Positions 5,862 through 61,941 are shown, numbered from the stretch's first letter. The stretch: DNA of 64,000 nt from an uncultured Bacilli bacterium (GCA_947631515.1 CANRLP010000001.1:223-64222), one strand, 5' to 3'. A program made the numbers and translations. Notes: generated from the letters alone by a model not told the origin.

Positions 5862-6827
5862 ATGCCTCTAATAACTACTCATAATTATTTTGCAAATGAT
5901 GTTTTTAATATAATTCCTAAAAAGATTAGTCAACAATTCTCTGATAAAAAAGGGGTATATGAATTGTTCGCTCAAGGTTTTGATTTATTTCAATTTTATG
6001 ATTTTTTTCGTCTTAAAAGAGAAAATTTATTAGATTATTGTCACAATCATTATACCGATCTATATTTTTTAAATTATATAAAAAATTTAAAAAAGTTAAA
6101 TTATCTTCAAAATCCTGAATTTTTAGCAGCTTTATATGGTCATTTAACTCACTATGTTCTAGATAGTAATTGCCACCCTTATATTGTTTATAAAACTGGT
6201 ATATGGAATCCTAAATTAAAAGAAACTCACAAATACAATGGATTACACTCTAAAATGGAAATGCAAATTGATGCTTATTTTTATGAACAAAAAAATCATA
6301 AGCCTTTTGAAAACTTTAAAATTCATAAATACTTAATTACCAAAGATAAACTTAGTAAAGAATTAATTAACCATTTGAATACTGTTTACTTAGAAACTTT
6401 CTCTATTAAAAATGGAGGTAAAAAATATAATATTGGCAAACGAAATATGTATTATTCTTACAAATTTTTAATTGAAGATAAAACTGGTATTAAAACTAAT
6501 TTTTATAAATTTATAGATATTTTTACACCTCACACCAACAAATTTCAAAATTATAGTGCTCATATAAAAGAAATTGACCAAAGCATTTTTAATGAAAATC
6601 ATGATTTTTGGTATCATCCATGGCTTGATAACGCAAAGTACAATACATCTTTTTTTGATATTTATAATAAAGCTTTAGAGGAAGCTAAAAATTTAATAAT
6701 TAAAACTGACGAATTTTTACATGATAAAATAACTGAAAAAGAATATTATACTTACTTACAAGATAAATCATATTTAACCGGATTATCATGGAAGAAAAAA
6801 GGTAAAATTAAACATTTAGAATTTTAA
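5862..6827 (+). CDS. zinc-dependent phospholipase C family protein (PF00882-like), cytoplasmic
   Basis: N-terminal MPLITTHNYF and GHLTHYVLDSNCHPY (HY..D...P.H) His/Asp clusters typical of the Zn-PLC / P1-nuclease fold. Convergent with cwlD and overlapping it by 12 nt. Confidence 0.5.
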   Translation: MPLITTHNYFANDVFNIIPKKISQQFSDKKGVYELFAQGFDLFQFYDFFRLKRENLLDYCHNHYTDLYFLNYIKNLKKLNYLQNPEFLAALYGHLTHYVLDSNCHPYIVYKTGIWNPKLKETHKYNGLHSKMEMQIDAYFYEQKNHKPFENFKIHKYLITKDKLSKELINHLNTVYLETFSIKNGGKKYNIGKRNMYYSYKFLIEDKTGIKTNFYKFIDIFTPHTNKFQNYSAHIKEIDQSIFNENHDFWYHPWLDNAKYNTSFFDIYNKALEEAKNLIIKTDEFLHDKITEKEYYTYLQDKSYLTGLSWKKKGKIKHLEF

Positions 6828-7475
6828 ACTTCCAATCGCTCGAGCAATTATTTTGGCTAATTTTTGTTGATAATCTTTAGTTATCAACAACGCTCTTTCG
6901 CGAGGATTTGATAAAAAACCACATTCTATCAACACGCCAGGAATATTTAACTTATCGTACATATAAGTTTTGATAGGTATCTTTTTTATTTCACGATCTG
7001 ATTTTAAAGACTTATTTAAGGCATTTTGAATTTGTTTGGCAATATCTTCATTACTTGTTTTTTTATTGTTATAAAAAACTTGAGGTCCAAAATAACTAGA
7101 ATCTTCTAAATAATTTAAATGAATTGAAAAATAGTAATTAGCTTTACTTTCATTAATTATTTTTATTCGATTGTCAAAATCGCTTTTTTTACGCATATAA
7201 GCATTAGGTTTAGATAAATCATAATCGCCACTACGAGTTAATATAACACTAGCTCCTAATTTACTTAATTCTTTTTCTAGCTCTAAAACTATTGCCAAAT
7301 TAATATCTTTTTCATAAATGTTTTTATACATAGTGCCAGGGTCGAGCCCACCATGACCACTATCTAAAATAATTACTTTTCCTATTAAGGGAAGACTTGC
7401 AAAAACAATTTTATTTGCCAAAAAACAAATTGCTACTAAAAAAAGAATGCATACTTTTATTAAATAGTTTTTCAT
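6816..7475 (-). CDS. cwlD: germination-specific N-acetylmuramoyl-L-alanine amidase CwlD-like
   Basis: Signal/TM N-terminus, ILDSGHGGLDPG motif, position downstream of rpsI as in Bacillus. Confidence 0.8.
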   Translation of the reverse strand: MKNYLIKVCILFLVAICFLANKIVFASLPLIGKVIILDSGHGGLDPGTMYKNIYEKDINLAIVLELEKELSKLGASVILTRSGDYDLSKPNAYMRKKSDFDNRIKIINESKANYYFSIHLNYLEDSSYFGPQVFYNNKKTSNEDIAKQIQNALNKSLKSDREIKKIPIKTYMYDKLNIPGVLIECGFLSNPRERALLITKDYQQKLAKIIARAIGSLKF

Positions 7476-11151: not shown

Positions 11152-11457
11152 TTAATCTTTCAATTTTTTACGTTTTATTTTACAAAAATTTCGCAATTTT
11201 TTACTATATAAACTAGCTGCAAAAAAACCTAAAAATAACATTATAATAAAATATATATGAACTACACCATAGTTAATATGATACATTGCTAAAATATACA
11301 AAAGGGCGATATCAAATATAAATACAATTGTTATTAAATAACGCAAAATTACAGGATATTTCCAAACTAATTTATAATTTAATTTACTGACAATATAAAA
11401 AAAATTACCAAAAATAAAAGAAAAAAGTAAAGAAATAATTTGAATTTTATAATCCAT
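11152..11457 (-). CDS. yabQ: spore cortex biosynthesis membrane protein YabQ
   Basis: Small multi-TM protein between yabP and divIC, as in Bacillus. Confidence 0.6.
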   Translation of the reverse strand: MDYKIQIISLLFSFIFGNFFYIVSKLNYKLVWKYPVILRYLITIVFIFDIALLYILAMYHINYGVVHIYFIIMLFLGFFAASLYSKKLRNFCKIKRKKLKD

Positions 11458-11756
11458 TATTTAAATAACTTCGTAAAGAATCCTTCTTTATTTTGATTTA
11501 ATTCTCCATCTAAATAACTAAAACTATCTATTTTTCCTTTTATTTTTACGTTTCCATCATGAGTATCAAGTTTTAAAATTTCTAAATTATGGCCTTTTAA
11601 TAAAATAACTCCCATATTACTTTCCATTAAAAATTCTTCATTATCAAAACTAGTTATTTTTTTAATTCCCGTTAAAAAGATTTCTCTTCGATCATTAATT
11701 CTTAATTCATGACTGCCTAGCATAATGTTGTCCACTTCTTTATCCATTATTAACAC
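11457..11756 (-). CDS. yabP: sporulation protein YabP
   Basis: LRINDRREIFLTGIKKITSFD...ILLKGHNLEI match the YabP family. Confidence 0.75.
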   Translation of the reverse strand: MLIMDKEVDNIMLGSHELRINDRREIFLTGIKKITSFDNEEFLMESNMGVILLKGHNLEILKLDTHDGNVKIKGKIDSFSYLDGELNQNKEGFFTKLFK

Positions 11757-12377: not shown

Positions 12378-13157
12378 TTATCTTGGATAACCGACATACA
12401 TAAGACCATTACAAATAAGGCCACCCATGCCATCTTTTCCATACTTAGTTTTATCGAGTAACATAATTAAATCAATTTCTCGATTTCTTTCTGTAAGAGA
12501 AATATCAGTTGCAATAATAGCTGGATCTAAACAATGAATATTAACCCTTTTAGGACTTGAAGCAAAATTAGCTCCAGCTTTGATTAATTCTTCGTAATTA
12601 CTTTGACAAGCACCTGCAATAATAACCAACTTTTCATGGCTTTTTTCGTACTTGCGACATTCTTTAACTGCTTTTATAAAATTCTCCGTATTTTTATAAT
12701 TACGAATATCTTCAATATTTCCCTTCTTTTGATAATATGCATCATGACCCGTAATTATAACTATATCAGGTTTATATTCATCTAATAAATCTTTAATTTT
12801 ATATGGTATATCTACTTCATTTAGTCTTTTGCCAATTGCATATACATTGTGTTTTTTATAATATTCTAAACATCTATTTAAGTATTCATTATCACCATCA
12901 ATATGCAGTATTTTCCCTGGTAAATAAAAAAAATCGTTACGATCTAAATCAGTATCATCATTATCACTAACTTCTATTCTTAAATTTTTTTTATCTTCTT
13001 CAGTAGCTATTTTTAAATCCTTAACTTCACTATCGGCATATAAACGGACATCAATACCTTTCAAATAACAAGTTTCCCCTTTAATATTAACAACTTTAAA
13101 CAAAGTATCATTATGATAACTGTTACGAGTTACATAATCCCCTTTTTTAATTTGCAT
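12378..13157 (-). CDS. yabG: sporulation-specific protease YabG (peptidase U57)
   Basis: KPDIVIITGHDAY...VIIAGACQS...LIKAGANFASSP.RVNIH.LDP align closely to B. subtilis YabG. Confidence 0.9.
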   Translation of the reverse strand: MQIKKGDYVTRNSYHNDTLFKVVNIKGETCYLKGIDVRLYADSEVKDLKIATEEDKKNLRIEVSDNDDTDLDRNDFFYLPGKILHIDGDNEYLNRCLEYYKKHNVYAIGKRLNEVDIPYKIKDLLDEYKPDIVIITGHDAYYQKKGNIEDIRNYKNTENFIKAVKECRKYEKSHEKLVIIAGACQSNYEELIKAGANFASSPKRVNIHCLDPAIIATDISLTERNREIDLIMLLDKTKYGKDGMGGLICNGLMYVGYPR

Positions 13158-16899: not shown

Positions 16900-17185
16900 C
16901 CTCTTTTCTATTTACCATTATTTTTATTTAATTGCATTACAAACATAGTTCCCATTCTAAAAAATAAAAAAAATCATAAACTAAGGGCGAAAAAACCGCG
17001 GTACCACCTTAATTCATGATTTTATCATGCACTTTAAATTCGTAACGAGAATAACTCGATTTAACTCCAGAACCATCTTCATATTTCATAATCTACTTGT
17101 TTTCATCAACCACAAGCTTTCTATAAGATTATTAAAATATTACTCTTTCTTTCTCCGTTAATTATTTGTATAGTAACACAAAAAA
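16900..17185 (-). promoter_or_regulatory. T-box riboswitch leader of metG
   Basis: Minus-strand AATTAAGGTGGTACCGCGG (revcomp of 16996-17013) matches the T-box consensus AATTAGGGTGGTACCGCG. ~300-nt leader with AGAGA-like and AUG-containing Stem I candidates, and a T-rich tract after the motif. Confidence 0.8.
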
Positions 17186-17194
17186 AATTTACTT

Positions 17195-17719
17195 TCAAGC
17201 AATATCAATTTTATTAATTATAATACTTGAAATTAATTTTAATAAATCCATTTGATAATCCGGAATAGGACTTGATTCTTGATAAAGTAAAATAAGCCCT
17301 AAACAATCAATCGAAGAAATTATAGGCAAGATTAAAAAATAACCAGTTAAATCTTCTTCTTTAAAATTATATGTATCTAAAACACTTTTAGTTACAGATT
17401 CTCGATTATGAATGTATTTAATTAATTTTTCACCTATTTCCTGATTATTTTTAATTTTATCTACTCCTGAATACAAAGCTTTATCTCGATCGGTAATAAT
17501 TATTTTAAAATCATAAGTATTATCTACAATATTAGCCAAATTTTTAACTATTTCACTATAATCTTGCATTTTAGAATATTTTTTTAACACAATATGATCA
17601 TTTTCAACAAATATTTCTAAATTTTCGCCATCTCGTATCCCTAAATTTCTTCGAATTTCTTTCGGTAAAACAATCCTTCCTAATTCATCAATTTTTCTAA
17701 TAACTCCTGTAGATTTCAA
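17195..17719 (-). CDS. spoVT: stage V sporulation protein T (AbrB-N + GAF)
   Basis: MK.TG..R.ID.LGR.V.PKEIRR.L.IR.G..LEIFV aligns to SpoVT. Position after mfd. Confidence 0.85.
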   Translation of the reverse strand: MKSTGVIRKIDELGRIVLPKEIRRNLGIRDGENLEIFVENDHIVLKKYSKMQDYSEIVKNLANIVDNTYDFKIIITDRDKALYSGVDKIKNNQEIGEKLIKYIHNRESVTKSVLDTYNFKEEDLTGYFLILPIISSIDCLGLILLYQESSPIPDYQMDLLKLISSIIINKIDIA

Positions 17720-27151: not shown

Positions 27152-27159
27152 CACCATAA

Positions 27160-27250
27160 AAAAAGTGCACACGAATAGGGATTGATATGGCTGCTGTCTT
27201 CCAACTCTGACCAGATTACAATATATCCGTTGCACTTTGTAATGATAACA
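27160..27250 (-). ncRNA. ffs: signal recognition particle RNA (small 4.5S type)
   Basis: Minus-strand CUGGUCAGAGUUGGAAGACAGCAGCCA matches SRP domain IV (CAGGUCAGGUCCGGAAGGAAGCAGCC). Closing helix AAAGUGCA/UGCACUUU. Position between gyrA and tadA-dnaX, as scr is in Bacillus. Confidence 0.7.
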
Positions 27251-27344: not shown

Positions 27345-29789
27345 TTAATCTATTTCTTCATTTTCTATAGATTCTTCAGTTTTATCAACCAAACTTAAAG
27401 TAGAAACTTGTTGATTATCTTTTAAATTTATTAAACGTACACCTTGAGTTACCCGGCCTAATACATTAATTTGATCTAATGGAACTCTTATAATCATTCC
27501 AGTATCGGTTACTATAATCAAATCATGATTTTCTTTTGCTAGTTTAAATGCTGCCATATCACCATTTTTATCAGTAATATTTAAAGCTTTGACACCTTTA
27601 CTTCCTCTCTTAGTTTGTCGATATTCACGAACATTTGTTTGCTTGCCATAACCTTTTTTCGTTACTATAATCAAAGAATCATTATCAGTAGCTTTTTCGG
27701 CACCAATACAAGTACTTCCTTCTAAAGTTATACCTTTAACTCCACTAGCAGTTCGCCCCATAACTCTTACTTCATCTTCGGAAAATTTAACCATTCTACC
27801 ATTGCTAGATCCTAATAAAATTGAATCATTTCCTGTAGTCTTTTGAACTGATATTAATTCATCATTATCTTTTAAACTAATACAAATTTTACCGCTTGTT
27901 CGAATATTTTCGAATTCGCTAATAGCAGTTCTTTTTACAATTCCTTGTTTTGTTGCAAAAAGTAAATATTTTGCAGAATCTTCTCTTTGAATACTTAAAA
28001 TAGAATTAATTTTTTCTTCTTTATCAATTTGAAGTAAGTTAATAATAGGTAATCCCTTAGATTGACGACTAAATTCAGGAATTTCATAACCTTTTAATCT
28101 ATAAACCTTTCCTTTATTTGTAAAGAACAAAATGTAATCATGAGTAGATAATGATTCTAAATGTTCAACAAAATCTTCTTCATTTGTATTCATACCCTTA
28201 ACACCTACACCACCACGTCTTTGTGATTTAAATGTATCAGCTGTTGTTCTTTTAATATAACCATTATGTGTAAGAGCAATCATTATATCTTGTTCTGGAA
28301 TTAAAGATTCATCTTCAATAAATTCAATTGCTGACATATCAATATTTGTTCTTCTTTCATCAGCGTATTTATTTTTAATTTCAATCAATTCTTCACGTAT
28401 GATGGCCAATACTTTTTCTTCGCTAGCCAAAATACTACGATATTCATCAATAGCCTTCAATAAATCAGCAAGTTCATTTTCAATTTTATCTCTTTCTAAA
28501 CCAGTTAAACGACGTAATCTCATATCTAAAATAGCTGTAGCTTGAATATCATCAAGTCCAAATCTACTCATTAATTGTTCTTTTGCCACTACATCTGTTT
28601 CAGCTTCTCTAATTATTTTAATTACTTCATCTAAATTATCTAAAGCAATTTTCAAGCCTTCTAAAATATGAACACGCTCTTCAGCTTTATTTAAATCATA
28701 TTTTGTACGACGAATAATAATTTCTTTTTGATAATCAATATATTTAACTATTATATCTTTAAGAGGCAATATTTTTGGACTTTTTTGATCAATCATTAAG
28801 AAATTAATACCATAAGTTGTTTGAAGTTGAGTATATTTATATAAATTATTAAGTACTACATTAGCATTAGCATCCTTTTTTATGTAAATAACTACTCGTA
28901 CGGGATTTTCTAAATTTGATTCCTCATGAATGTCACTAATTCCATCAATAATTTTATCACGAACTAATTCGCCAATTCTTGTTTGAAATTCGGCTTTATT
29001 TACTTTATAAGGAAGAGCTGTAACAATAATTCTTGTCTTTCCATTAACTTCTTCTATATTCGCTGTACCTCGAATAGTTATTGAACCTCTACCAGTTTCA
29101 TAAGCTTTCTTAATTCCACTATTTCCTAAAATACTAGCACCTGTTGGAAAATCTGGACCTTTAATATATTGCATAAGCCCATCTGTATCAATATCAGGAT
29201 TATCTATATATGCAACACATCCATCAACAACCTCTCCTAAATTATGAGGTGGAATATTTGTAGCCATTCCAACTGCAATACCCATTGTTCCATTAACTAA
29301 TATATTAGGAAATCTACTTGGTAAAATAGTTGGTTCATTTTCTGTTTCATCAAAGTTTGGAACAAAATCAACAGTATTTTTATTTAAATCTCGAACCATT
29401 TCCAAAGATAGTTTTGATAACCGAGCTTCGGTATAACGCATGGCTGCGGCACCATCACCATCCATATTACCAAAATTTCCGTGACCATCAACTAACATGT
29501 GGCGATAAGTAAAATTTTGGGCCATTCCAACCATTGCTTCATAAATGGAAGAATCACCATGAGGATGATATTTACCCATAACATCTCCAACTACTCTCGC
29601 ACTCTTACGATGAGGTTTATCGGGAGTATATCCTGCTTCAAACATTGAATACAAAATACGACGATGTACCGGTTTTAATCCATCACGTAAATCGGGGATT
29701 GCACGAGCAACAATAACACTCATGGAATAACGAATAAAAGAATTTTTGAATTCTGATACAATATTATTTTCTACAATTTTATCCATCAA
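27345..29789 (-). CDS. gyrA: DNA gyrase subunit A
   Basis: [15 protein letters not shown], active-site YxxT region (MRYTEARL), C-terminal beta-pinwheel repeats. Confidence 0.97.
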
Positions 29790-29798
29790 CTACACCTC

Positions 29799-31718
29799 CT
29801 AAATATCCAAATCCTCAGCTTCATGGCCATGTTCTTCAATATATTGTTTTCTTGGTAAAACATCATCACCCATAAAATCACTAATGATTTTATCAGCTTC
29901 CATCGCATCTTCAACCGTAACTCTTCTTAAAATACGATTACTTATATGCATTGTTGTATCTCTTAAATCTTCTGCTTCCATTTCACCTAAACCTTTAAAA
30001 CGTTGAACAATTGGCTTAGCATTACTTGGTAAAGTAGTTCGATAAGACTCTAATTCTTCTTCTGTTTGAAAATATTTATTAGTTTTACCATAAGTTATAC
30101 GGAATAATGGTGGTTGAGCAACATATACATACCCACCTTCAATAATTGGTCTAAAAAAGCGATAAAATAATGTTAATAACAAAATTTGAATGTGAGAACC
30201 ATCAACATCAGCATCGGTCATGATAATTATTTTATGATATCTTAATTTACTTACGTCAAAATCATCGCCGATACCTGTACCAAAAGCCGTAATCATAGTT
30301 CTAATTTCTTCATTAGATAATGCTCTATCAAGACGAGCCTTTTCTACATTTAAAATTTTACCACGTAAAGGCAATATAGCTTGAGTTTGAGGAATTCTAG
30401 CTAGTTTAGCATTCCCTCCGGCACTATCTCCTTCGACAATAAATATCTCCGAAATAGAAGCATCTTTACTTGTACAATCAGCAAGTTTTCCTAACGTATT
30501 TATAGAATCTAAAACTGTTTTTCTTCTTGTAATTTCCCGAGCTTTTTTAGCAGCAAGACGAGCATGTAAAGCCGTCATAGACTTATCAACAATTAATTTT
30601 GCTTCTTCAGGATTTTCCATTAAAAATCTTTCAAAACCTTCACTAAACACATCGTCAGCTATTTTTCTTACTTCACTATTACCAAGTTTCGTTTTAGTTT
30701 GACCTTCAAATTGAGGATCAGGATGTTTACAAGAAATAATCATTGTAAGACCTTCCCTAACATCTTCTCCTGTTAAAGCATCATCATTATCTTTTAAAAT
30801 TTTGGCATTTTTAGCATAATTATTAATAATTCTAGTTAAAGCTCTTTTTACTCCGTCTTCGTGAGTTCCACCTTCATAAGTATTAATGTTATTAGTAAAA
30901 GAATAAAGATTAGCATTATAAGAGTCATTGTATTGCATAGCAACTTCTATTTCAATACCATCCTCAGTTCCTTCAACATATATAACTTCATCATGAAGTA
31001 CTTTTTTATTTTTATTAAGCATTTTTACATATTCAATAATTCCACCATGATACAAAAATTCATCTTTTTTATCTTCTTCACGTTCATCAATTAAAACAAT
31101 TCGAATTCCTTTATTCAAAAAAGCAAGTTCTTGTAAACGTTTAGCTAATGTATCGTAATTATAAATTGTTGTTTCTGTAAAAATTTCTGGATCAGCTTTA
31201 AAAGTTACGGTTGTTCCAGTTCTATTTTCTTCACAAGTTCCAATTTCTTTCAAAGGTTCAACCGGATGGCCACCATTTTCAAATTTTTGATAAAAAATCT
31301 TACCTTCCCTGTAAATAGTAACTTCAAGCCATGTTGATAAAGCATTAACGACACTAGCTCCAACACCATGTAATCCTCCACTAACTTTATAACCACCGCC
31401 GCCAAATTTTCCACCAGCATGCAAAACGGTAAATATTGTTTCAACAGTAGATAAGCCAGTTTTTTGATTGATTCCTGTTGGCATACCTCTTCCATCATCT
31501 TTAACTGTAATTGTATTGCCTTTACCAACAACGACTTCTATATCGTCACAATATCCTGCTAAAGCTTCATCAATAGCATTATCAACAATTTCCCAAACTA
31601 AATGATGCAATCCTTTTTCACTAGTTGTACCAATATACATTCCCGGACGTTTTCTAACAGCTTCTAAGCCCTCTAATACTTGAATATCACTATCATCATA
31701 ATGTTTATTTTCGTCCAT
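29799..31718 (-). CDS. gyrB: DNA gyrase subunit B
   Basis: GHKL ATPase, Toprim [17 protein letters not shown]. Confidence 0.97.
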
Positions 31719-32812
31719 TATTCTACCTCCTCTAATAAACCATTCGAAATAAAAAACTTTTTATAATTTTTATCTTTTAATAAAAATGATAATTTTTCTA
31801 TTTCCGTTGTTGTTATAAATGTTTGAATATCTTGTTCAATAAATTGCAAAATATTTTTGATTTTTTCAACATCTAATTCACTTAATAAATCATCTAATAT
31901 TAATATGGGAGTAACATTTTTCTCTTTTTTAAAAATACATATTTCACTAAATTTCCAAGCAATTACCGCATTTTTTTGTTGACCTTCAGATCCATAATCT
32001 TTTAAATCATATTCATCTAAATATAAATGAAAATCATCATGATGAATACCAATATTGGTTTTGCCAAATGCTAAATCTCTTTTCAAATTTTTATTATATA
32101 AGTTAATTAATTCCTTTCGAGATTTATTTTGATAATCACTATCATATTGAACTACCAAATCCCCATCTAAAGCTATTTTTTTATAAATATCTTTTAAATA
32201 TAAGTTAAGATTTTTTAAATAATTTTCGCGCATTTGATAAATTTCTAAGCCTGAATCAATTAATTTTTCCGTAATAACTTGTAAATAAGTCGTCATAGCA
32301 TTACCATTTAAATACATTTGTTTTAAATAAGCATTACGAATTTTCAGAAGTTTATTATAATCATTTAATTTTTTTAAATACTCAATATGAAGTTGAGACA
32401 AACCAATATTCAAATATTTTCGACGAATACTGGGAGTATCTTTAATCATTTTTAAATCATTCGGATTAAATAAAACTACATTAATTTTCGAAACATAATC
32501 ACTAATTCTTGTTATCTTATTATTATTAATTTTAACTTTTTTACCATCATTATTAATAATAATCTTGAAAGTAGTTTGAAATTCATCATTTAACATACCT
32601 TCTATTTTAGTCAAATTTGTTCCGGATTTTATTAAGGTTTTATCATTTATTTGGCGAAAACTTCTTGTAATTGCAAGTACATATATTGCTTCTACTAAAT
32701 TTGTTTTACCACTACCATTTTTACCATAAATAATATTTAAATGATTATCAAAGGTAACTGCTAATTGATTATAATTTCGAAAATTTAGTAATTTCAAATT
32801 CTGTATTTGCAT
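31718..32812 (-). CDS. recF: DNA replication and repair protein RecF
   Basis: GKNGSGKTN Walker A, C-terminal signature and Walker B. Confidence 0.95.
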
Positions 32813-32844
32813 TTTTGGCCTCTTTTACGCTCATATAATAAAAT

Positions 32845-32874
32845 AATAGGTATTTATGTACTCCTATACCTATT
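32845..32874 (-). terminator. hairpin after comK-like gene (AATAGGTAT...ATACCTATT, 9-bp stem)
   Basis: Inverted repeat in the 77-nt gap between the comK-like stop and recF start, followed by a T-rich tract on the minus strand. Confidence 0.35.
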
Positions 32875-32889
32875 AAAATTATAACATAT

Positions 32890-33363
32890 TTAAGCATTTT
32901 TTTGTATCTTTTTTTCAAGTTTTCGGCCATTTAAGACAGATTCTAAGCGCGTAGCCCTCATAACTTGATTATCCACAATTCCATATGTGGTATCTAATGA
33001 TAATTTATCGCCATTTTTAAATACTACTATTAAATGATTTTTTTCATAATAGTAGCGATCAATACTACTAAGTCTTAACCACGAGCATTCTGGAAGTCTA
33101 GGAGAAGTTGTGGGAAAAAATATTATACTATTGCTTTCTTCAACTATAATGGGAGCTTTGTAAGAAACTCCAATTAAATTTTCTGTTCCTTTTTTTCTTC
33201 CAGCTAAACTACTTCCAAAATATTCACAACTTTCTTCCATAATTTCATTAGCACACTTATTAACAATGAAATTAGAATCTTCTTCATATACTCGTGTTTT
33301 ATTTCCCATAGCATATAAAGCAACGGTATTATTATTAATTTCATAATTTTCCATCCATTTCAC
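32890..33363 (-). CDS. comK: ComK-family competence transcription factor homolog
   Basis: YEINNNTVAL, FGSSLAGRKKGT, KAPIIVEESNSIIFFPTTSPRLPECSW align to B. subtilis ComK (FGSSYAGRKAGT; KPPIMVDPSNQIFLFPTLSSTRPQCGW). AGGGGG RBS. Confidence 0.75.
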   Translation of the reverse strand: MKWMENYEINNNTVALYAMGNKTRVYEEDSNFIVNKCANEIMEESCEYFGSSLAGRKKGTENLIGVSYKAPIIVEESNSIIFFPTTSPRLPECSWLRLSSIDRYYYEKNHLIVVFKNGDKLSLDTTYGIVDNQVMRATRLESVLNGRKLEKKIQKNA

Positions 33364-33409
33364 CCCCTAACTTTGGAAAATTGTTTATTACCTTAACAGA
33401 TAAATATTA

Positions 33410-33445
33410 AATTTTTTGTCGAAAAAAAAGCTTACTAACAATTTA
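33410..33445 (-). terminator. intrinsic terminator after dnaN
   Basis: CTTACTA-acaatt-TAGTAAG hairpin followed by T8 on the minus strand. Confidence 0.6.
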
Positions 33446-33452
33446 GTAAGTT

Positions 33453-34571
33453 TTATTTATTAAATATTGGTAAAACTAGTTGAATTAAAGATTCATCTGT
33501 TAAAGATTTTATAATTATTGGTTTAACATCCGTATTTAGTAAAATTAATATTTCTTCCTCTTTTATAGCTTTTAATGCTTCTAACATATAGCGAGAACTA
33601 AAGTAAATTTCAATATTAGAACTAGCATCTGTATCTACAGTCAATTTTTCTTCAACTTTTCCAATTTCGCTAGCTGATGAAGAAATTTGCATCTCTTTAT
33701 TTTCAATCTTCATTTTAATTATATTTTTATCTTTTCCTTGAGTTAATAAGGCTGCTCTATCTACACTTGCCATAAATTCATCTTTATTCATTTTTATTAA
33801 AATAGCAAATTCAGTTGGAATTAAATTAGAAGTATTAGGATAAGTTCCAGAAAGAAGATTTGTTTGAAATTTTATATTTTTATATTTAAACAACACTTTA
33901 TTACTAAAAATGTGCATTTCAACATTTTCATCATCCGTAATTATTTTTTCTAATTCCATAATATTTTTACCAGGTATAACAATATTTATATCGTTTGTAA
34001 CTGGGGTTGATAACTTAATATTTTTTTTAGCTAAACGATAAGAATCAGTTGCTATAAATATTAAAATATCTCCGGTAATAGTGACATTTATACCTGTTAA
34101 TAGCGGCCGTAATTCTTGATTAGATATAGCAAAAACAGTTTGATTAATTAATGACTTTAAGACATCTCCTTTTAAAATAATTGGATCTTTATGTTCATCT
34201 ATTCTTAAATTTGGATAATCATTAGCATCTAAACAATTCAAATTATATTGGTTATTTTCTGTATAAATTCTAATTTTTAAACCATCTATAACTTCAAAGT
34301 GAATAATATCACTAGGCATTTTTCTTATTATTTCTAATATATATTTACTTTGAATAACTATTGTTCCTGTACTTTCAATACTTTTAATTTCTTTATTACT
34401 AATAAAGGCATTAATCGTAAGTTCACTATCACTAGCAGTTAAAGATAATCCTTCATTGGTTAAATCAAATTTAATTCCATTTAAGACTGGTATTACATTC
34501 TTAGTCGATACTCCTTTTATTACATGATTTAAATTTTCTAATAAAATGTTTTTATCAATTGTAAATTTCAT
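33453..34571 (-). CDS. dnaN: DNA polymerase III beta sliding clamp
   Basis: 372 aa with three-domain beta-clamp architecture, immediately after dnaA. Confidence 0.95.
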   Translation of the reverse strand: MKFTIDKNILLENLNHVIKGVSTKNVIPVLNGIKFDLTNEGLSLTASDSELTINAFISNKEIKSIESTGTIVIQSKYILEIIRKMPSDIIHFEVIDGLKIRIYTENNQYNLNCLDANDYPNLRIDEHKDPIILKGDVLKSLINQTVFAISNQELRPLLTGINVTITGDILIFIATDSYRLAKKNIKLSTPVTNDINIVIPGKNIMELEKIITDDENVEMHIFSNKVLFKYKNIKFQTNLLSGTYPNTSNLIPTEFAILIKMNKDEFMASVDRAALLTQGKDKNIIKMKIENKEMQISSSASEIGKVEEKLTVDTDASSNIEIYFSSRYMLEALKAIKEEEILILLNTDVKPIIIKSLTDESLIQLVLPIFNK

Positions 34572-34726
34572 TGTTCATTCCTTCTTTCTTTTTATTAATT
34601 TATTTTATTATGTTTATAATGCTGTTGATAAAGTGAATAACTCTATTTTTTCTTTATTTTATCGTATTTTAGCTATTTTTTTATTAGTGCATAAGCAAGT
34701 TTATTTTAAGTTAATTATCAACAATA
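34572..34726. promoter_or_regulatory. dnaA-dnaN intergenic DnaA-box cluster / AT-rich unwinding region (oriC part 2)
   Basis: TGTTGATAA (~34644) and TTATCAACA (~34706) boxes in a very AT-rich 155-bp spacer. Confidence 0.55.
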
Positions 34727-36118: not shown

Positions 36119-36449
36119 TTTAATTGTAGCTCAAACCACTTAAATTGAAAAGTCTAAAATAATTATTCACTCTAATTCACATGTTATCAACAGCAAATTT
36201 TTCCTTATTCTATCTGATTTTAGAATATTTATCAACATTATCCACAAATTTTCAAATAATTTTTATGCACATTGTTTATATAATTTATCAACAATAATGT
36301 TAATATGTTGATAAAGACTAAATTTCCTTTAATTTAATGATTAGATATAAACATTTTTATAAACTAGTGTATTTTTCAAACATCTTCTTGACTTTTTTTA
36401 TGCACTAATATTATAATAAGGAAGCTTAGATTTAAAGGAGGAAGAAAAA
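36119..36449. promoter_or_regulatory. oriC DnaA-box cluster between dnaA and rpmH
   Basis: Perfect TTATCCACA at 36238-36246. TTATCAACA at 36184-36192, 36229-36237 and 36285-36293, and TGTTGATAA at 36306-36314. The coding strand switches here. Confidence 0.75.
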
Positions 36450-51377: not shown

Positions 51378-54062
<2,685 letters not shown>

Positions 54063-54063
54063 A

Positions 54064-54627
54064 TTATTCCTCCTTAAAGTATATTTCATCCACAACTTTT
54101 AAATAATCGAGAGGTGGACGATAACCATATTTAATCAAATATCCCGTATTTTGAATAAATGAATAAGGGATGCTTTTACGATTGTTATTATCTATAAATT
54201 CAATAAAATCAAAACCTTTTAATAAATATACTAAATCATTAATTTTTATAATTAAAAATACAATTCCTTGATGTCTTAATATATTTCTAATATGATTTAT
54301 TTGATGATGATGGATATTGGCTAGAGGAAAAGATGTTTTATTTTGGGTAACTTTAGCTTCAAATTCAATATATTTGCCCCGATAAAGGCCATTATAGTCG
54401 AGGGTTGATTGTTCTTTAAAGTAACCTTTTTCAATTACTTTTCCGTGTAAATTATATGAAACATTAGCAACTCCGATGGGAGTAGGTTTTTTATAAATAT
54501 AAGCTTTATCAATTTCAATATAGTATTCGTTACTTAAATTTAACTCTTCTTCTAAATCCATTCCACGGTTTTTATAGGAAATAGGGGTTTGGTGCACGTC
54601 TTTTTTTATGTTATTTGGATAATTCAT
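54064..54627 (-). CDS. recU: Holliday junction resolvase RecU
   Basis: RecU family length and motifs. recU-ponA operon as in Bacillus. Confidence 0.85.
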   Translation of the reverse strand: MNYPNNIKKDVHQTPISYKNRGMDLEEELNLSNEYYIEIDKAYIYKKPTPIGVANVSYNLHGKVIEKGYFKEQSTLDYNGLYRGKYIEFEAKVTQNKTSFPLANIHHHQINHIRNILRHQGIVFLIIKINDLVYLLKGFDFIEFIDNNNRKSIPYSFIQNTGYLIKYGYRPPLDYLKVVDEIYFKEE

Positions 54628-54968
54628 AAAACCACCTATTAAAATTATACTATATTTTCTTTGATTTTACTATAATTAAGGAAAGAGATTGACAAAAATC
54701 TTTTTGCTATCTTTTGTCGAATTTATTTCAATTATTTTACAATTTAGTAAGATGGTTATTAGAAGGTGAATGTATGTTTAGAATGGAAGTTTTTTTGAAT
54801 GATATGATTGAAAAAATTAATGAGGCCGAATTATTAATAGATAGTAAAAAAATAAAAGTTCAGGAAAAATAAATTTTTATAAAGCATATAATATAAGTAA
54901 TAGTATACTCCATAACTTGACAATTTTACTACTTATTTATTATAATTAGGACGTAAGAAGGTGGTAGA

Positions 54969-55301
54969 ATGTATAGTGAAAAAGTTACTTTAACCAAAGA
55001 AGATATCTTGAATAAAGATTTTAAGGTTGATGCAAGAGGATATCGTCCTCAAGAAGTAGATGATTTTTTAGATACAATTATTGATGATTATACAGCTTAT
55101 ACTACCATTATTAGAAGACAGGAAAATGAAATCCGGGCTTTAACAGAAGATAATATTAAATTAAAACAAGAATATCATAAACTTCGGAGTCGTTTAGAAG
55201 CGGCAGAAGATGCTTCTTCTAATTCAAGTCCTGTTAATAATGTTGATTTGTTAAGAAGAATTAGTCAACTTGAAAAAATTGTATTTGGAAAAAATGAATA
55301 A
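54969..55301 (+). CDS. gpsB: cell-cycle protein GpsB (DivIVA-domain)
   Basis: LTKEDILNKDFKVDARGYRPQEVDDFLD matches the GpsB N-terminus. Followed by rnpB, as in B. subtilis. Confidence 0.88.
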   Translation: MYSEKVTLTKEDILNKDFKVDARGYRPQEVDDFLDTIIDDYTAYTTIIRRQENEIRALTEDNIKLKQEYHKLRSRLEAAEDASSNSSPVNNVDLLRRISQLEKIVFGKNE

Positions 55302-55650
55302 TTTGTAGGCAAATGCTGCATTTTTAAAAAAATGTAGAGGAAAGTCCATGCTCACACAGTCTGTGATGATTGTAGTGTTCGTGCTTAGGGAAAAAATAAC
55401 CTAAGGCAAAAAATTTTTTTGACGGCGGAAAATTTACCTTAAATGGTAATAGTATCCATAAAGTGCCAAAGAGACGAGCTTGCTTGGAAACGAGCAAGGA
55501 TGGAACGTGGTAAACCCCGCGAGTGAGAAACCCAAAATTTGGTAGGGGAGTTTTTGCTGATAAGAAGAATGAAGCAAAAAAGAGTAATCTAGATAAATAT
55601 TTGCCACACGAATTTTTCGTGTACAGAACATGGCTTATTCAGGTTATTTA
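55300..55650 (+). ncRNA. rnpB: RNase P RNA, type B
   Basis: GAGGAAAGTCCATGCTCACAC...GTGTTCGTGC and AGTGCCA..GACGA....GGAACG.GGTAAACCCC.CGAG.GAGAAACCCAAA.TTGGTAGGGGA plus ACAGAACATGGCTTA match the B. subtilis M1 RNA. T-run at 55650-55659. Confidence 0.88.
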
Positions 55651-56854: not shown

Positions 56855-56868
56855 CAAACATATGTTTG
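56855..56868. promoter_or_regulatory. candidate LexA (Cheo/SOS-box-like) operator CAAACATATGTTTG upstream of recA
   Basis: Perfect 14-nt palindrome of form AAAC-N4-GTTT (Bacillus consensus GAAC-N4-GTTC). Lies 10 nt upstream of the TTGACA -35 at 56878-56883. Confidence 0.4.
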
Positions 56869-56933: not shown

Positions 56934-57986
56934 ATGAAATTATCAAAAGATACTAAAGACAAAGATAAAGATAAAGCGTTAGAGCAAGTGCTTGCCGATA
57001 TTGAAAAACAATTCGGTAAAGGTGCAATTATGAAACTTGGAGAAGAAGAACACATGGAGATCGATGTTACTAGTAGTGGTTCTTTAACTCTAGATGTAGC
57101 TTTAGGAGTAGGTGGTTACCCTAAAGGTCGAATTATTGAAATATATGGTCCTGAATCTTCAGGAAAAACGACATTTGCCTTACATGCTATTGCAGAAGTG
57201 CAAAAAGAAGGCGGACGGGCAGCATTTATAGATGCCGAACATGCTTTTGACCCTGTATATGCTAAAAATTTGGGGGTTAATATTAATGAATTATTATTTT
57301 CTCAACCAGATACCGGAGAACAAGCTTTAGAAATATGCGAAGCCCTAGTTAGAAGTGAAGCAGTTAATATTGTAGTAATCGATTCTGTTGCGGCCTTAGT
57401 TCCTCAAGCGGAAATTGATGGAGAAATGGGAGATTCTCATGTTGGTTTACAAGCCAGATTGATGAGTCAAGCCTTGCGTAAGTTATCAGGAACAATTAAC
57501 AAAACAAAAACTACAGCAATATTTATTAATCAATTAAGAGAAAAAGTTGGTGTAATGTTTGGTAATCCTGAAACCACACCAGGAGGTCGGGCTTTAAAAT
57601 TTTATTCTACAATTCGGTTAGATATCCGTCGGGCTGAACAAATTAAACAAGGAGATCAAGTAATTGGAAATCGGACCAATATCAAAGTTGTTAAAAATAA
57701 AGTCGCTCCACCATTTAAATCAGCTACAGTTGATATTATGTATGGAGAAGGTATTAGCCATGAAGGTGAAATAATTGATATTGCTAGTGAGTTAAATATT
57801 ATGGAAAAAAGTGGAGCATGGTATTCCTATAATGGCGAAAAAATTGGCCAAGGTAAAGAAAATACTAAAATATTTTTAAAAGAAAATCCACTAATTCGGG
57901 ATGAAATTGAACAAAAAGTACGTGAACATTATGGTTTTAACTCTAATAAAAGTCAAACAACAGTTAAGGAAGAAGAAAAAGAATAA
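56934..57986 (+). CDS. recA: recombinase RecA
   Basis: GPESSGKTT Walker A, L1/L2 loops, [16 protein letters not shown]-terminus. Confidence 0.97.
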
Positions 57987-61503: not shown

Positions 61504-61941
61504 GTGAAAAAAATGATACAAAATAAAAAGGGATTTACATTAGTAGAACTTATGGCAGTAATTGTAATTTTAGCGATTATTATTACCGTTGCTTCTTCTA
61601 GTATTTTTGCCACAGTCAATAGAGCTAAAAAAGGAACAGCTGAAGAGATGCGTGGTAGTCTATCGGATATTGCAATCACCTATGTTTTGGATAATTATCA
61701 CTTAAAAAAATGCTCTGATAGTTTTTCCAAAGAAATGATTCAAGGTAAAACAACTAATTTAGCAACTAATGGTAATTGTGCTAAAAAAATTACAGTTGAT
61801 ACTTTAATAAAAGAAGGTTTATTTGAAGATAAAAAGGGATATTGTAAGAATACTGATTTTGTAATTGTCTATCGTTATTCTAATGGTGATGATAGTGAAT
61901 ATAAAGCTTATGCATCTGATACTGTGTGTACTAATTTTTAA
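61504..61941 (+). CDS. type IV prepilin / competence pseudopilin (ComGC-like), stand-alone
   Basis: Class III signal KKG|FTLVELMAVIVILAIIITVA, followed by a Cys-containing C-terminal globular domain. Confidence 0.75.
   Translation: MKKMIQNKKGFTLVELMAVIVILAIIITVASSSIFATVNRAKKGTAEEMRGSLSDIAITYVLDNYHLKKCSDSFSKEMIQGKTTNLATNGNCAKKITVDTLIKEGLFEDKKGYCKNTDFVIVYRYSNGDDSEYKAYASDTVCTNF

Follow-up and report, generated by a model that had tools for sequence, protein, structure and literature searches.

A short ComK-family gene held between dnaN and recF in uncultured gut Bacilli, with a candidate Spo0A box in its promoter

Introduction

Why a gene of the ComK family lies between dnaN and recF, beside the replication origin of an uncultured Bacilli bacterium, is the question raised by the 64-kb stretch of DNA analysed here (hereafter the window). 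In the textbook gene order of B. subtilis, the slot between these two genes is occupied by yaaA. To our knowledge, work on ComK has been confined almost entirely to Bacillus, Staphylococcus and Listeria; the studied proteins are about 190 residues long and are controlled mainly by MecA/ClpCP proteolysis and by autoregulation. That homologues of the window protein are annotated as ComK is already known, and the literature searched contains no description of a ComK between dnaN and recF.

Results

A ComK-family gene in the yaaA slot

The minus-strand ORF at positions 32890–33363 encodes 157 residues when read from GTG 33363, the length assigned to it in a preliminary description of the window. 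That codon, in frame with ATG 33354, overlaps the Shine-Dalgarno sequence, and P0001, a database protein of identical sequence, begins with the ATG, so that the ORF length stands whereas the product has 154 residues. The proposed family membership was borne out by a profile search, in which the protein matched Pfam ComK (PF06338) over practically its full length with 138.8 bits (E = 1.6e-40, profile positions 1–150 of 152; gathering cut-off, 22.3 bits), and neither an S4 domain nor any other significant Pfam match was found in this ORF. The possibility that a yaaA ortholog had been overlooked was also checked: the slot contains no S4/yaaA-like ORF, and an overlapping 53-residue ORF has no Pfam match. 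An Rfam search of the slot gave nothing at the gathering cut-off or at E ≤ 10. Since dnaN and recF flank the ORF (Table 1), the gene does occupy the slot of B. subtilis yaaA, as had been described. The yaaA gene (rlbA) of B. subtilis and many Bacillota shares with it the slot and the organization as a small single gene, but the encoded protein is unrelated.

The motifs FGSS.AGRK.GT and K.PI.V...FFPT.S.R...C.W, cited in the preliminary description, are present in the window protein and make up the invariant family core in the alignment, in which T10, E24, C43, G52, R53, K66, P68, F80, P81, T82, C90, W92, Q130 and L137 are unchanged across short and long ComK forms. The dN/dS ratio against the nearest species is 0.07–0.11, with dS near saturation, and the AF2 model of the 154-residue protein has a pLDDT of 90.7; a PDB sequence search with the protein returned no match. 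Judged from its sequence, the ORF is a functional ComK-family member under purifying selection.

The gene lies about 1.3–3 kb from clusters of DnaA boxes, matches to which number 45 in the window (21.9 expected) and are concentrated upstream of dnaA. Beyond the genes listed in Table 1, the window has the content typical of an origin region in Bacillota, with rpmH, rnpA, yidC, jag, trmE, gidA, gidB and parB on one side and tadA, SRP RNA, dnaX, ybaB, recR and holB on the other. A perfect DnaA box inside the comK ORF (32969–32977) was considered and rejected as a coding coincidence, being present at that codon in 3 of 86 orthologues; TGTTGATAA, found at codon 29, where it follows the peptide IVDK, is commoner among the orthologues.

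Table 1. Coordinates of the short comK gene, its signals and its neighbours in the window
Feature	Position	Strand	Remarks
DnaA-box cluster (oriC / dnaA promoter)	36184-36314		upstream of dnaA
dnaA	34727-36118	-	ORF call
Two further DnaA boxes	34623-34631, 34715-34723		dnaA-dnaN spacer
dnaN, upstream neighbour	33453-34571	-	DNA_pol3_beta domains in identical locus L001; synteny
dnaN intrinsic terminator	33422-33450	-	stem CTTACTAA/TTAGTAAG 33450-33431, T-run 33429-33422
Candidate 0A box TTCGACAAA	33415-33423	-	perfect reverse complement of TGTCGAA core, A/T flanks
Extended -10 TGTTAAGGT	33390-33398	-	TG 33398-33397, hexamer TAAGGT 33395-33390
Strong Shine-Dalgarno AGGGGGTG	33361-33368	-	6 nt from base 33361 to ATG 33354
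Short ComK-family CDS	32890-33354	-	ATG 33354, TAA stop 32892-32890; 154 aa
recF promoter, consensus extended -10 TGTTATAAT	32878-32886	-	starts 4 nt past comK stop
Hairpin AATAGGTAT-(AGGAGTACATAA)-ATACCTATT	32845-32874	-	then T-rich tail 32844-32835
recF, downstream neighbour	31718-32812	-	SMC_N/AAA_23 domains; synteny
gyrB	29799-31718	-	next after recF
gyrA	27345-29789	-	next after gyrB

The position is conserved throughout the lineage

The gene had been taken for an independent insert, and a recent horizontal insertion into the dnaN–recF spacer of the source genome might be supposed from its own terminators, promoter and ribosome-binding site and from the presence of a different gene in the slot of model Bacilli. 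In a survey of 92 related loci (32–100% protein identity, metagenome loci included), however, dnaN and/or recF flank the gene in every one as far as the contigs reach, some of the short contigs showing one flanking gene only. The exact protein and its homologues of 73% and 62% identity are encoded in the order dnaA-dnaN-ComK-recF-gyrB-gyrA. When one genome per species was scanned, 544 genomes proved to encode a relative, and the best 80 of these (49–88% identity) have the order dnaA-dnaN-ComK-recF-gyrB wherever the contig extends. All of these 80 are metagenome-assembled genomes of uncultured gut organisms assigned to Bacilli, Tenericutes, Mollicutes, Erysipelotrichaceae or Ca. Ventrenecus, the last being incertae sedis at NCBI; the genomes of this lineage of gut Bacilli with the short comK are AT-rich.

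The slot is retained even at 39–43% identity (L091–L094) and at 32–39% identity (L090, L095 and L096), and among the related loci the identity of the ComK-like protein declines in step with that of DnaA, DnaN and RecF. The spacers on both sides of the gene measure about 90 nt, and the exceptions (L024, L029, L033, L042, L053 and L091) are additions only, with one more ORF or a lengthened spacer. Neither repeats nor mobile-element genes were found flanking the gene. The loci share ancestry, so that counts of loci, here and below, are not independent events. The fixed slot down to 32% identity and the divergence parallel to that of the neighbouring genes together indicate that short comK is an old, vertically inherited gene of this lineage. 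The synteny survey thus refutes the reading as a recent insertion, to which we assign next to no probability.

A short ComK subfamily lacking the C-terminal tail

The window protein has more than 1,550 homologues, mostly of 146–160 residues. A HMMER search of 1.84 billion representative sequences gave 961 clusters (50% identity), of which the nearest 100 or so contain proteins of 140–157 residues, whereas the canonical ComKs of about 190 residues match the window protein only at about 1e-18 to 1e-22. Clustering on the core columns of the alignment likewise splits a short group (median 150 residues) from a long one (median 192 residues). By these measures, the proteins of about 146–160 residues constitute a distinct short ComK subfamily.

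For a residue-level comparison, a sequence was used that we take to be that of B. subtilis ComK; it is 56% identical to a 192-residue database ComK (P0262) and 36% identical to the window protein over 149 residues. Relative to Bacillus ComK (alignment A3), the short form retains the entire conserved core and lacks about 8 N-terminal residues, a loop of 4–5 residues and the last 25 residues. The window protein ends about 10 residues past the last core helix, about where those 25 residues begin, and the tail is absent from all short forms. The protein is thus shorter than the 192-residue B. subtilis ComK, as had been pointed out. The two belong to the same PF06338 family and have all invariant core residues in common. 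In B. subtilis ComK, the C-terminal tail contains the MecA degron FMLYPKEERT...GERY (PMC8138137), and its last 25 residues, as summarized in PMC3128618 with Susanna 2006 as the source, are required for comG activation in vivo and not for DNA binding. Short ComK therefore differs from B. subtilis ComK in lacking both the degron and the activation tail.

Short comK is a one-gene transcription unit

The preliminary description had also assigned to the gene transcription and translation signals of its own, and this part of it holds. In the direction of transcription, the dnaN terminator is followed by an extended -10 promoter, the Shine-Dalgarno sequence, the comK coding sequence and a terminator hairpin overlapping the recF promoter. 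The hairpin behind dnaN is real, its position being 33450–33431 plus a T-run at 33429–33422 rather than 33410–33445 as first given; it has an AT-rich stem of 8 bp with 2 GC pairs (-6.6 kcal/mol upon folding), and by a loose rule an equivalent hairpin and T-run are present in 73 of 85 related loci. The pattern TGnTAnnnT of the extended -10 element recurs in the same register across the related dnaN–comK spacers, and no -35 hexamer is found at 17 nt from the -10 of comK. The ribosome-binding site that had been proposed is present (AGGGGGTG, 33368–33361), and (A)GGGGGTGA or GGAGGTGA serves as the Shine-Dalgarno sequence in nearly all related loci.

Downstream of comK, the recF promoter is conserved as TGnTATAAT in essentially all related comK–recF spacers, including those around the homologues of 32–43% identity. 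The hairpin noted earlier in front of recF (32874–32845) was recovered with its T-rich tail, and its stem of 9–10 bp folds at -8.7 kcal/mol. Across 29 diverse sequences, 86% of the cells are paired, with compensatory changes at 3 pairs, and the loop motif GTATAGGAGTAC is kept even in loci that have lost the 3' arm. RNAalifold applied to the recF leader returned a 4-bp inner hairpin only; the 9-bp outer stem was checked directly. We infer that this hairpin terminates comK transcription and also forms a structure in the 5' leader of recF, whose transcript would start within the 5' arm of the hairpin. From the arrangement of these signals, short comK is a one-gene transcription unit. Generic promoter and terminator scanning was uninformative in such AT-rich DNA: 46 promoter-like sites were counted against 41.7 expected, and a simple terminator scan misses AT-rich terminators, including the dnaN hairpin because its stem has 2 GC pairs only.

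A conserved candidate Spo0A box in the comK promoter

The T-run of the dnaN terminator leads straight into the 9-mer TTCGACAAA, with 21 nt between it and the -10 hexamer of comK further downstream. Its core is the reverse complement of TGTCGAA, which with A/T flanks constitutes the 0A box for Spo0A of both Bacillus (B. subtilis) and C. difficile (PMC3485338). In the forward orientation, the 7-mer TTCGACA occurs in 52 of 85 dnaN–comK spacers, which contain only one reverse copy; its density in these spacers is 5.36/kb, as compared with 0.065/kb per strand elsewhere (about 650 kb), an enrichment of about 80-fold. The full 9-mer, present in 34 of the 85 spacers, is about 550-fold denser there than elsewhere (0.006/kb). 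The 21-nt gap between box and -10 was counted in 56 cases over the 85 loci, the box is repeated two to three times with a period of 10–11 nt in distant loci (e.g., L055, L063, L067, L072, L079, L086, L092 and L093), and it is still present around homologues of 32% identity.

Within the window, the only other intergenic exact copy of TTCGACAAA is at 54713–54721, upstream of recU-ponA, and among about 9 relatives, 3 likewise have the box ahead of recU. This second site is consistent with a global regulator, and we regard it as suggestive, not decisive.

The arrangement resembles a known promoter class. At spoIIG-type promoters, 0A boxes lie over a displaced -35 with a spacing of 22 bp, and in these Spo0A-activated sigma-A promoters the 0A core is likewise found in one orientation and in tandem with a period of 10–11 nt. 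The short comK promoter is similar in that 21 nt separate its candidate box from the -10 and that a proper -35 is missing at 17 nt.

The same observations bear on which protein reads the box, which could belong to another factor than Spo0A. The TTCGACAAA repeats might instead be bound by the ComK-like protein as its own operator, conferring positive autoregulation as at the B. subtilis comK promoter (PcomK), in which case the recU-ponA site would mark a small recombination regulon. However, the motif matches the extended Spo0A box at 9 of 9 positions, rather than the A/T-tract ComK box, and both the tandem 10-nt phasing and the position overlapping the -35 region are typical of Spo0A sites; we therefore give autoregulation little credence.

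Alternatively, the CGACA boxes might be phased low-affinity DnaA boxes, through which expression of short comK would track DnaA-ATP or replication stress. The sequence TT[AT]TCGACA differs from TTWTNCACA at a single position, and a few loci have, upstream of dnaA, CGACA boxes phased with DnaA boxes. In one subclade, TTATCAACA or TTTTCAACA stands at the position of the box, a change that removes a contact critical for Spo0A and agrees with the DnaA-box variant of the gut lineage, whose main oriC box variant is TTATCAACA. In several distant loci (e.g., L037, L063, L065 and L091), perfect DnaA boxes (TGTGGATAA) also lie directly next to the promoter or to the end of the gene. Both the subclade and these adjoining boxes count against control by Spo0A. 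On the other hand, the oriC clusters of the window itself contain no CGACA variant, the density of TT[AT]TCGACA is 3.15/kb in the dnaN–comK spacer and 0.05–0.10/kb in the region upstream of dnaA and the dnaA–dnaN spacer, and more than 60 lineages keep the G without exception, contrary to what one would expect of a weak box with degenerate sequence. Since CGACA is absent from oriC and about 30–60 times denser at the comK promoter, control by DnaA is kept as a minor and very improbable alternative.

Sporulation genes are encoded in the window

Gene content is known for the 64-kb window and for the origin-region loci of relatives. Two genes of the window pass the NCBIfam equivalog cut-offs for sporulation proteins, namely YabG (285.7 bits; cut-off, 270.4) and YabP (91.3 bits; cut-off, 75.4), and SpoVT-, CwlD- and YabQ-like genes have best matches below the cut-off. 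Because sporulation-specific genes are encoded here, the source organism is probably a spore-former possessing Spo0A.

Little points to a role in competence

The preliminary description had presented the protein as the master competence regulator. In that capacity it would be a canonical activator that binds paired AAAA-N5-TTTT boxes and turns on comG, comE and comF as well as recA and related genes. Its clear membership of the ComK family with all core motifs, the label 'competence protein ComK' that its homologues bear in the sources, the presence of recA, recU, recR and recF within the same window, and a prepilin-type gene at 61504–61941 are all compatible with this idea. The prepilin-type gene, which had been put forward as a hint of competence, scores 22.5 bits against the ComGC cut-off of 75 and is thus not a ComGC match, and recA carries a LexA-like palindrome instead of ComK boxes. 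A search of the 64 kb for pairs of AAAA-N5-TTTT boxes at N8 or N18 spacing, allowing up to one mismatch, gave chance levels, with 1 type I and 0 type II pairs against 0.5 and 0.6 expected, although the motif of the short form may differ. In particular, none was found near the pilin gene, where a search for ComK boxes had been suggested, nor near recA or the short comK promoter, the last in contrast to B. subtilis, nor does the window show a competence operon.

A further point against this role is the lack of the last 25 residues, which in B. subtilis ComK are required for comG activation. A ComK truncated in the same region is known from B. cereus, where ComK2, lacking 22 C-terminal residues, decreases comG expression (PMC3128618). 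From the genomic data in hand, nothing beyond homology supports a role in competence, and we consider the canonical activator function unlikely.

Discussion

The results described above lead us to favour, at slightly better than even confidence, a reading in which the gene encodes a short ComK-like regulator that is gated by Spo0A, is free of proteolytic control through MecA, and is an old fixture beside oriC. In the first step of the proposed mechanism, phosphorylated Spo0A would drive transcription of short comK as at spoIIG-type promoters; we infer this from the perfect, orientation-fixed box 21 nt from the -10, together with the sporulation genes encoded in the window. Direct binding of Spo0A~P to B. 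subtilis PcomK, at three sites that activate and two that repress (PMC3297582), provides a precedent for such control, and the two promoters share Spo0A-type boxes. The protein would then appear upon entry into stationary phase or sporulation and, through its conserved core, may bind DNA as an oligomer of the ComK type with a LytTR-like β-fold. With the LytTR domains themselves (AgrA, ComE and 3d6w), short ComK has 11–13% identity and no relationship at the sequence level, and it has no receiver domain. Because the degron is absent, the level of short ComK would be set by transcription and not by MecA/ClpCP proteolysis.

[quoted passage not shown] Action as a repressor or anti-repressor, in the manner of B. 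cereus ComK2, would be equally possible. B. cereus ComK2 (BC5250), a ComK paralogue with a natural truncation at the C-terminus, sets an example of a short ComK acting in a non-canonical way. It coexists, however, with a full-length ComK1 and is encoded away from the origin, whereas in the loci studied here no ComK other than the short form was encountered, and this form is found lineage-wide. The position also distinguishes short comK, fixed between dnaN and recF, from B. subtilis comK, which is at a distal locus.

As a reason for the conserved position, one may speculate that a gene adjacent to oriC would be present in the most copies while cells replicate and would be captured early in the forespore. 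A competence-family regulator is likewise kept beside oriC in S. pneumoniae, where the comCDE genes encode members of a different protein family. For comCDE, gene dosage has been put forward as the link between replication stress and competence, a model that is disputed (PMC8394987). No link of short comK to replication stress was seen in the present loci, and the analogies with comCDE or with sporulation position effects are speculation. A wider proposal would combine these elements into a switch for natural transformation, or for a stationary-phase recombination programme, in an entire order-level lineage of uncultured gut spore-formers, gated directly by Spo0A~P, independent of MecA/ClpCP and tied to oriC through dosage or forespore capture; we regard it as rather doubtful. 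Were it true, this lineage would possess a second ComK control architecture, simpler than that of B. subtilis, and the gene would allow gene exchange to be predicted for hundreds of gut species not yet cultured.

With respect to the literature searched, the new elements are the short subfamily as the dominant form among near neighbours, its universal dnaN–recF slot, the loss of degron and activation tail, and the promoter with a conserved 0A box. Automatic annotation as 'competence protein ComK' implies a function beyond the evidence, which is corrected here. Most of the near ComK relatives in public data are of the form of about 150 residues without degron and activation tail, and this form is held in the dnaN–recF slot in hundreds of uncultured gut species. 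If the proposed control by Spo0A is true, short comK would offer a testable handle, consisting of one box and one small protein, on how an uncultured gut lineage regulates stationary-phase and competence-like processes, a natural experiment on the ComK core without its tail, and another case of a developmental regulator sited at the replication origin.

Conserved elements around comK

The spacer between comK, the short ComK-family gene, and recF is unusually conserved in the window and in the related loci compared with it (L010–L096), presenting a consensus extended −10 (TGnTATAAT) followed by a hairpin, the loop motif of which, GTATAGGAGTAC, is retained even in loci that lack the 3′ arm. In one subclade, both arms of this hairpin are wholly replaced by other sequence (ATATATTTGT/ACAAATATAT) around a GTAT-GGGG-ATAC core. 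No Rfam family matched the element, which may do more than terminate transcription and could, for instance, act as a leader element of recF/gyrBA. The dnaN–ComK–recF arrangement is otherwise fixed, with additional sequence or an unknown ORF in a few lineages: the comK–recF spacer is enlarged to 943 nt in L024 and 539 nt in L029, the dnaN–comK spacer reaches ~560–640 nt in L033, L042, and L053, and L091 carries an additional 187-aa ORF that has no match in Pfam.

Several distant lineages have perfect or near-perfect DnaA boxes (TGTGGATAA, TTATCAACA) directly bordering either the comK promoter or the end of the gene (dnaN–comK and comK-downstream spacers of L037, L056, L058, L063, L065, L077, L078, and L091; the loci concerned also include L045, L047, L084, and L088). 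In L091, inverted pairs of these boxes flank comK on either side, and one subclade has a DnaA-type box in place of the CGACA box, the Spo0A-box-like motif of the comK promoter, in the same 21-nt register. The box lying inside the ComK ORF of the window probably reflects chance in the coding sequence (VDN codons), because only 3 of 86 ComK orthologues have it at the corresponding codon.

Coordinates of features in the window
Feature	Position	Strand	Remark
T-box leader, small SRP RNA, class B RNase P RNA	16980–17164, 27156–27241, 55301–55641		listed jointly
Sporulation-specific genes	6816–7475, 11152–11756, 12378–13157, 17195–17719		
comK–recF spacer element	32845–32886	−	
DnaA box TTATCCACA	32969–32977		perfect; within ComK ORF
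Class A PBP gene	51378–54095		
recU	54064–54627		
Spo0A-box-like TTCGACAAA	54713–54721	−	second intergenic exact copy; upstream of recU and class A PBP gene
Palindrome CAAACATATGTTTG	56855–56868		upstream of recA
recA	56934–57986		
Lone prepilin-type gene	61504–61941		145 aa; N_methyl motif

Other features of the window

The Spo0A-box-like site preceding recU is followed 14 nt downstream by an inverted near-copy, TTTTTGTCAAT, and such a site recurs 81–128 nt upstream of recU in three of about nine related metagenome loci (L101, L102, and L106). Immediately upstream of the recA promoter (TTGACA-17-TAAAAT), the palindrome looks like a LexA (Cheo) box of the Bacillus type in which AAAC stands in place of GAAC, and this likeness suggests SOS rather than ComK control of recA. 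The prepilin-type gene, situated between RNase J and ftsY with no pilus assembly genes nearby, scores weakly against ComGC (22.5 bits) and GspG (33.1 bits), far under the cut-offs.

The three structured RNAs, including the T-box leader upstream of metS, are ordinary Bacillota features. YabG and YabP score above the cut-offs of NCBIfam, and the window also has CwlD-like, YabQ-like, and SpoVT-like genes; judging from these sporulation-specific genes, this AT-rich ‘Tenericutes/Bacilli’ MAG lineage is probably an endospore former.
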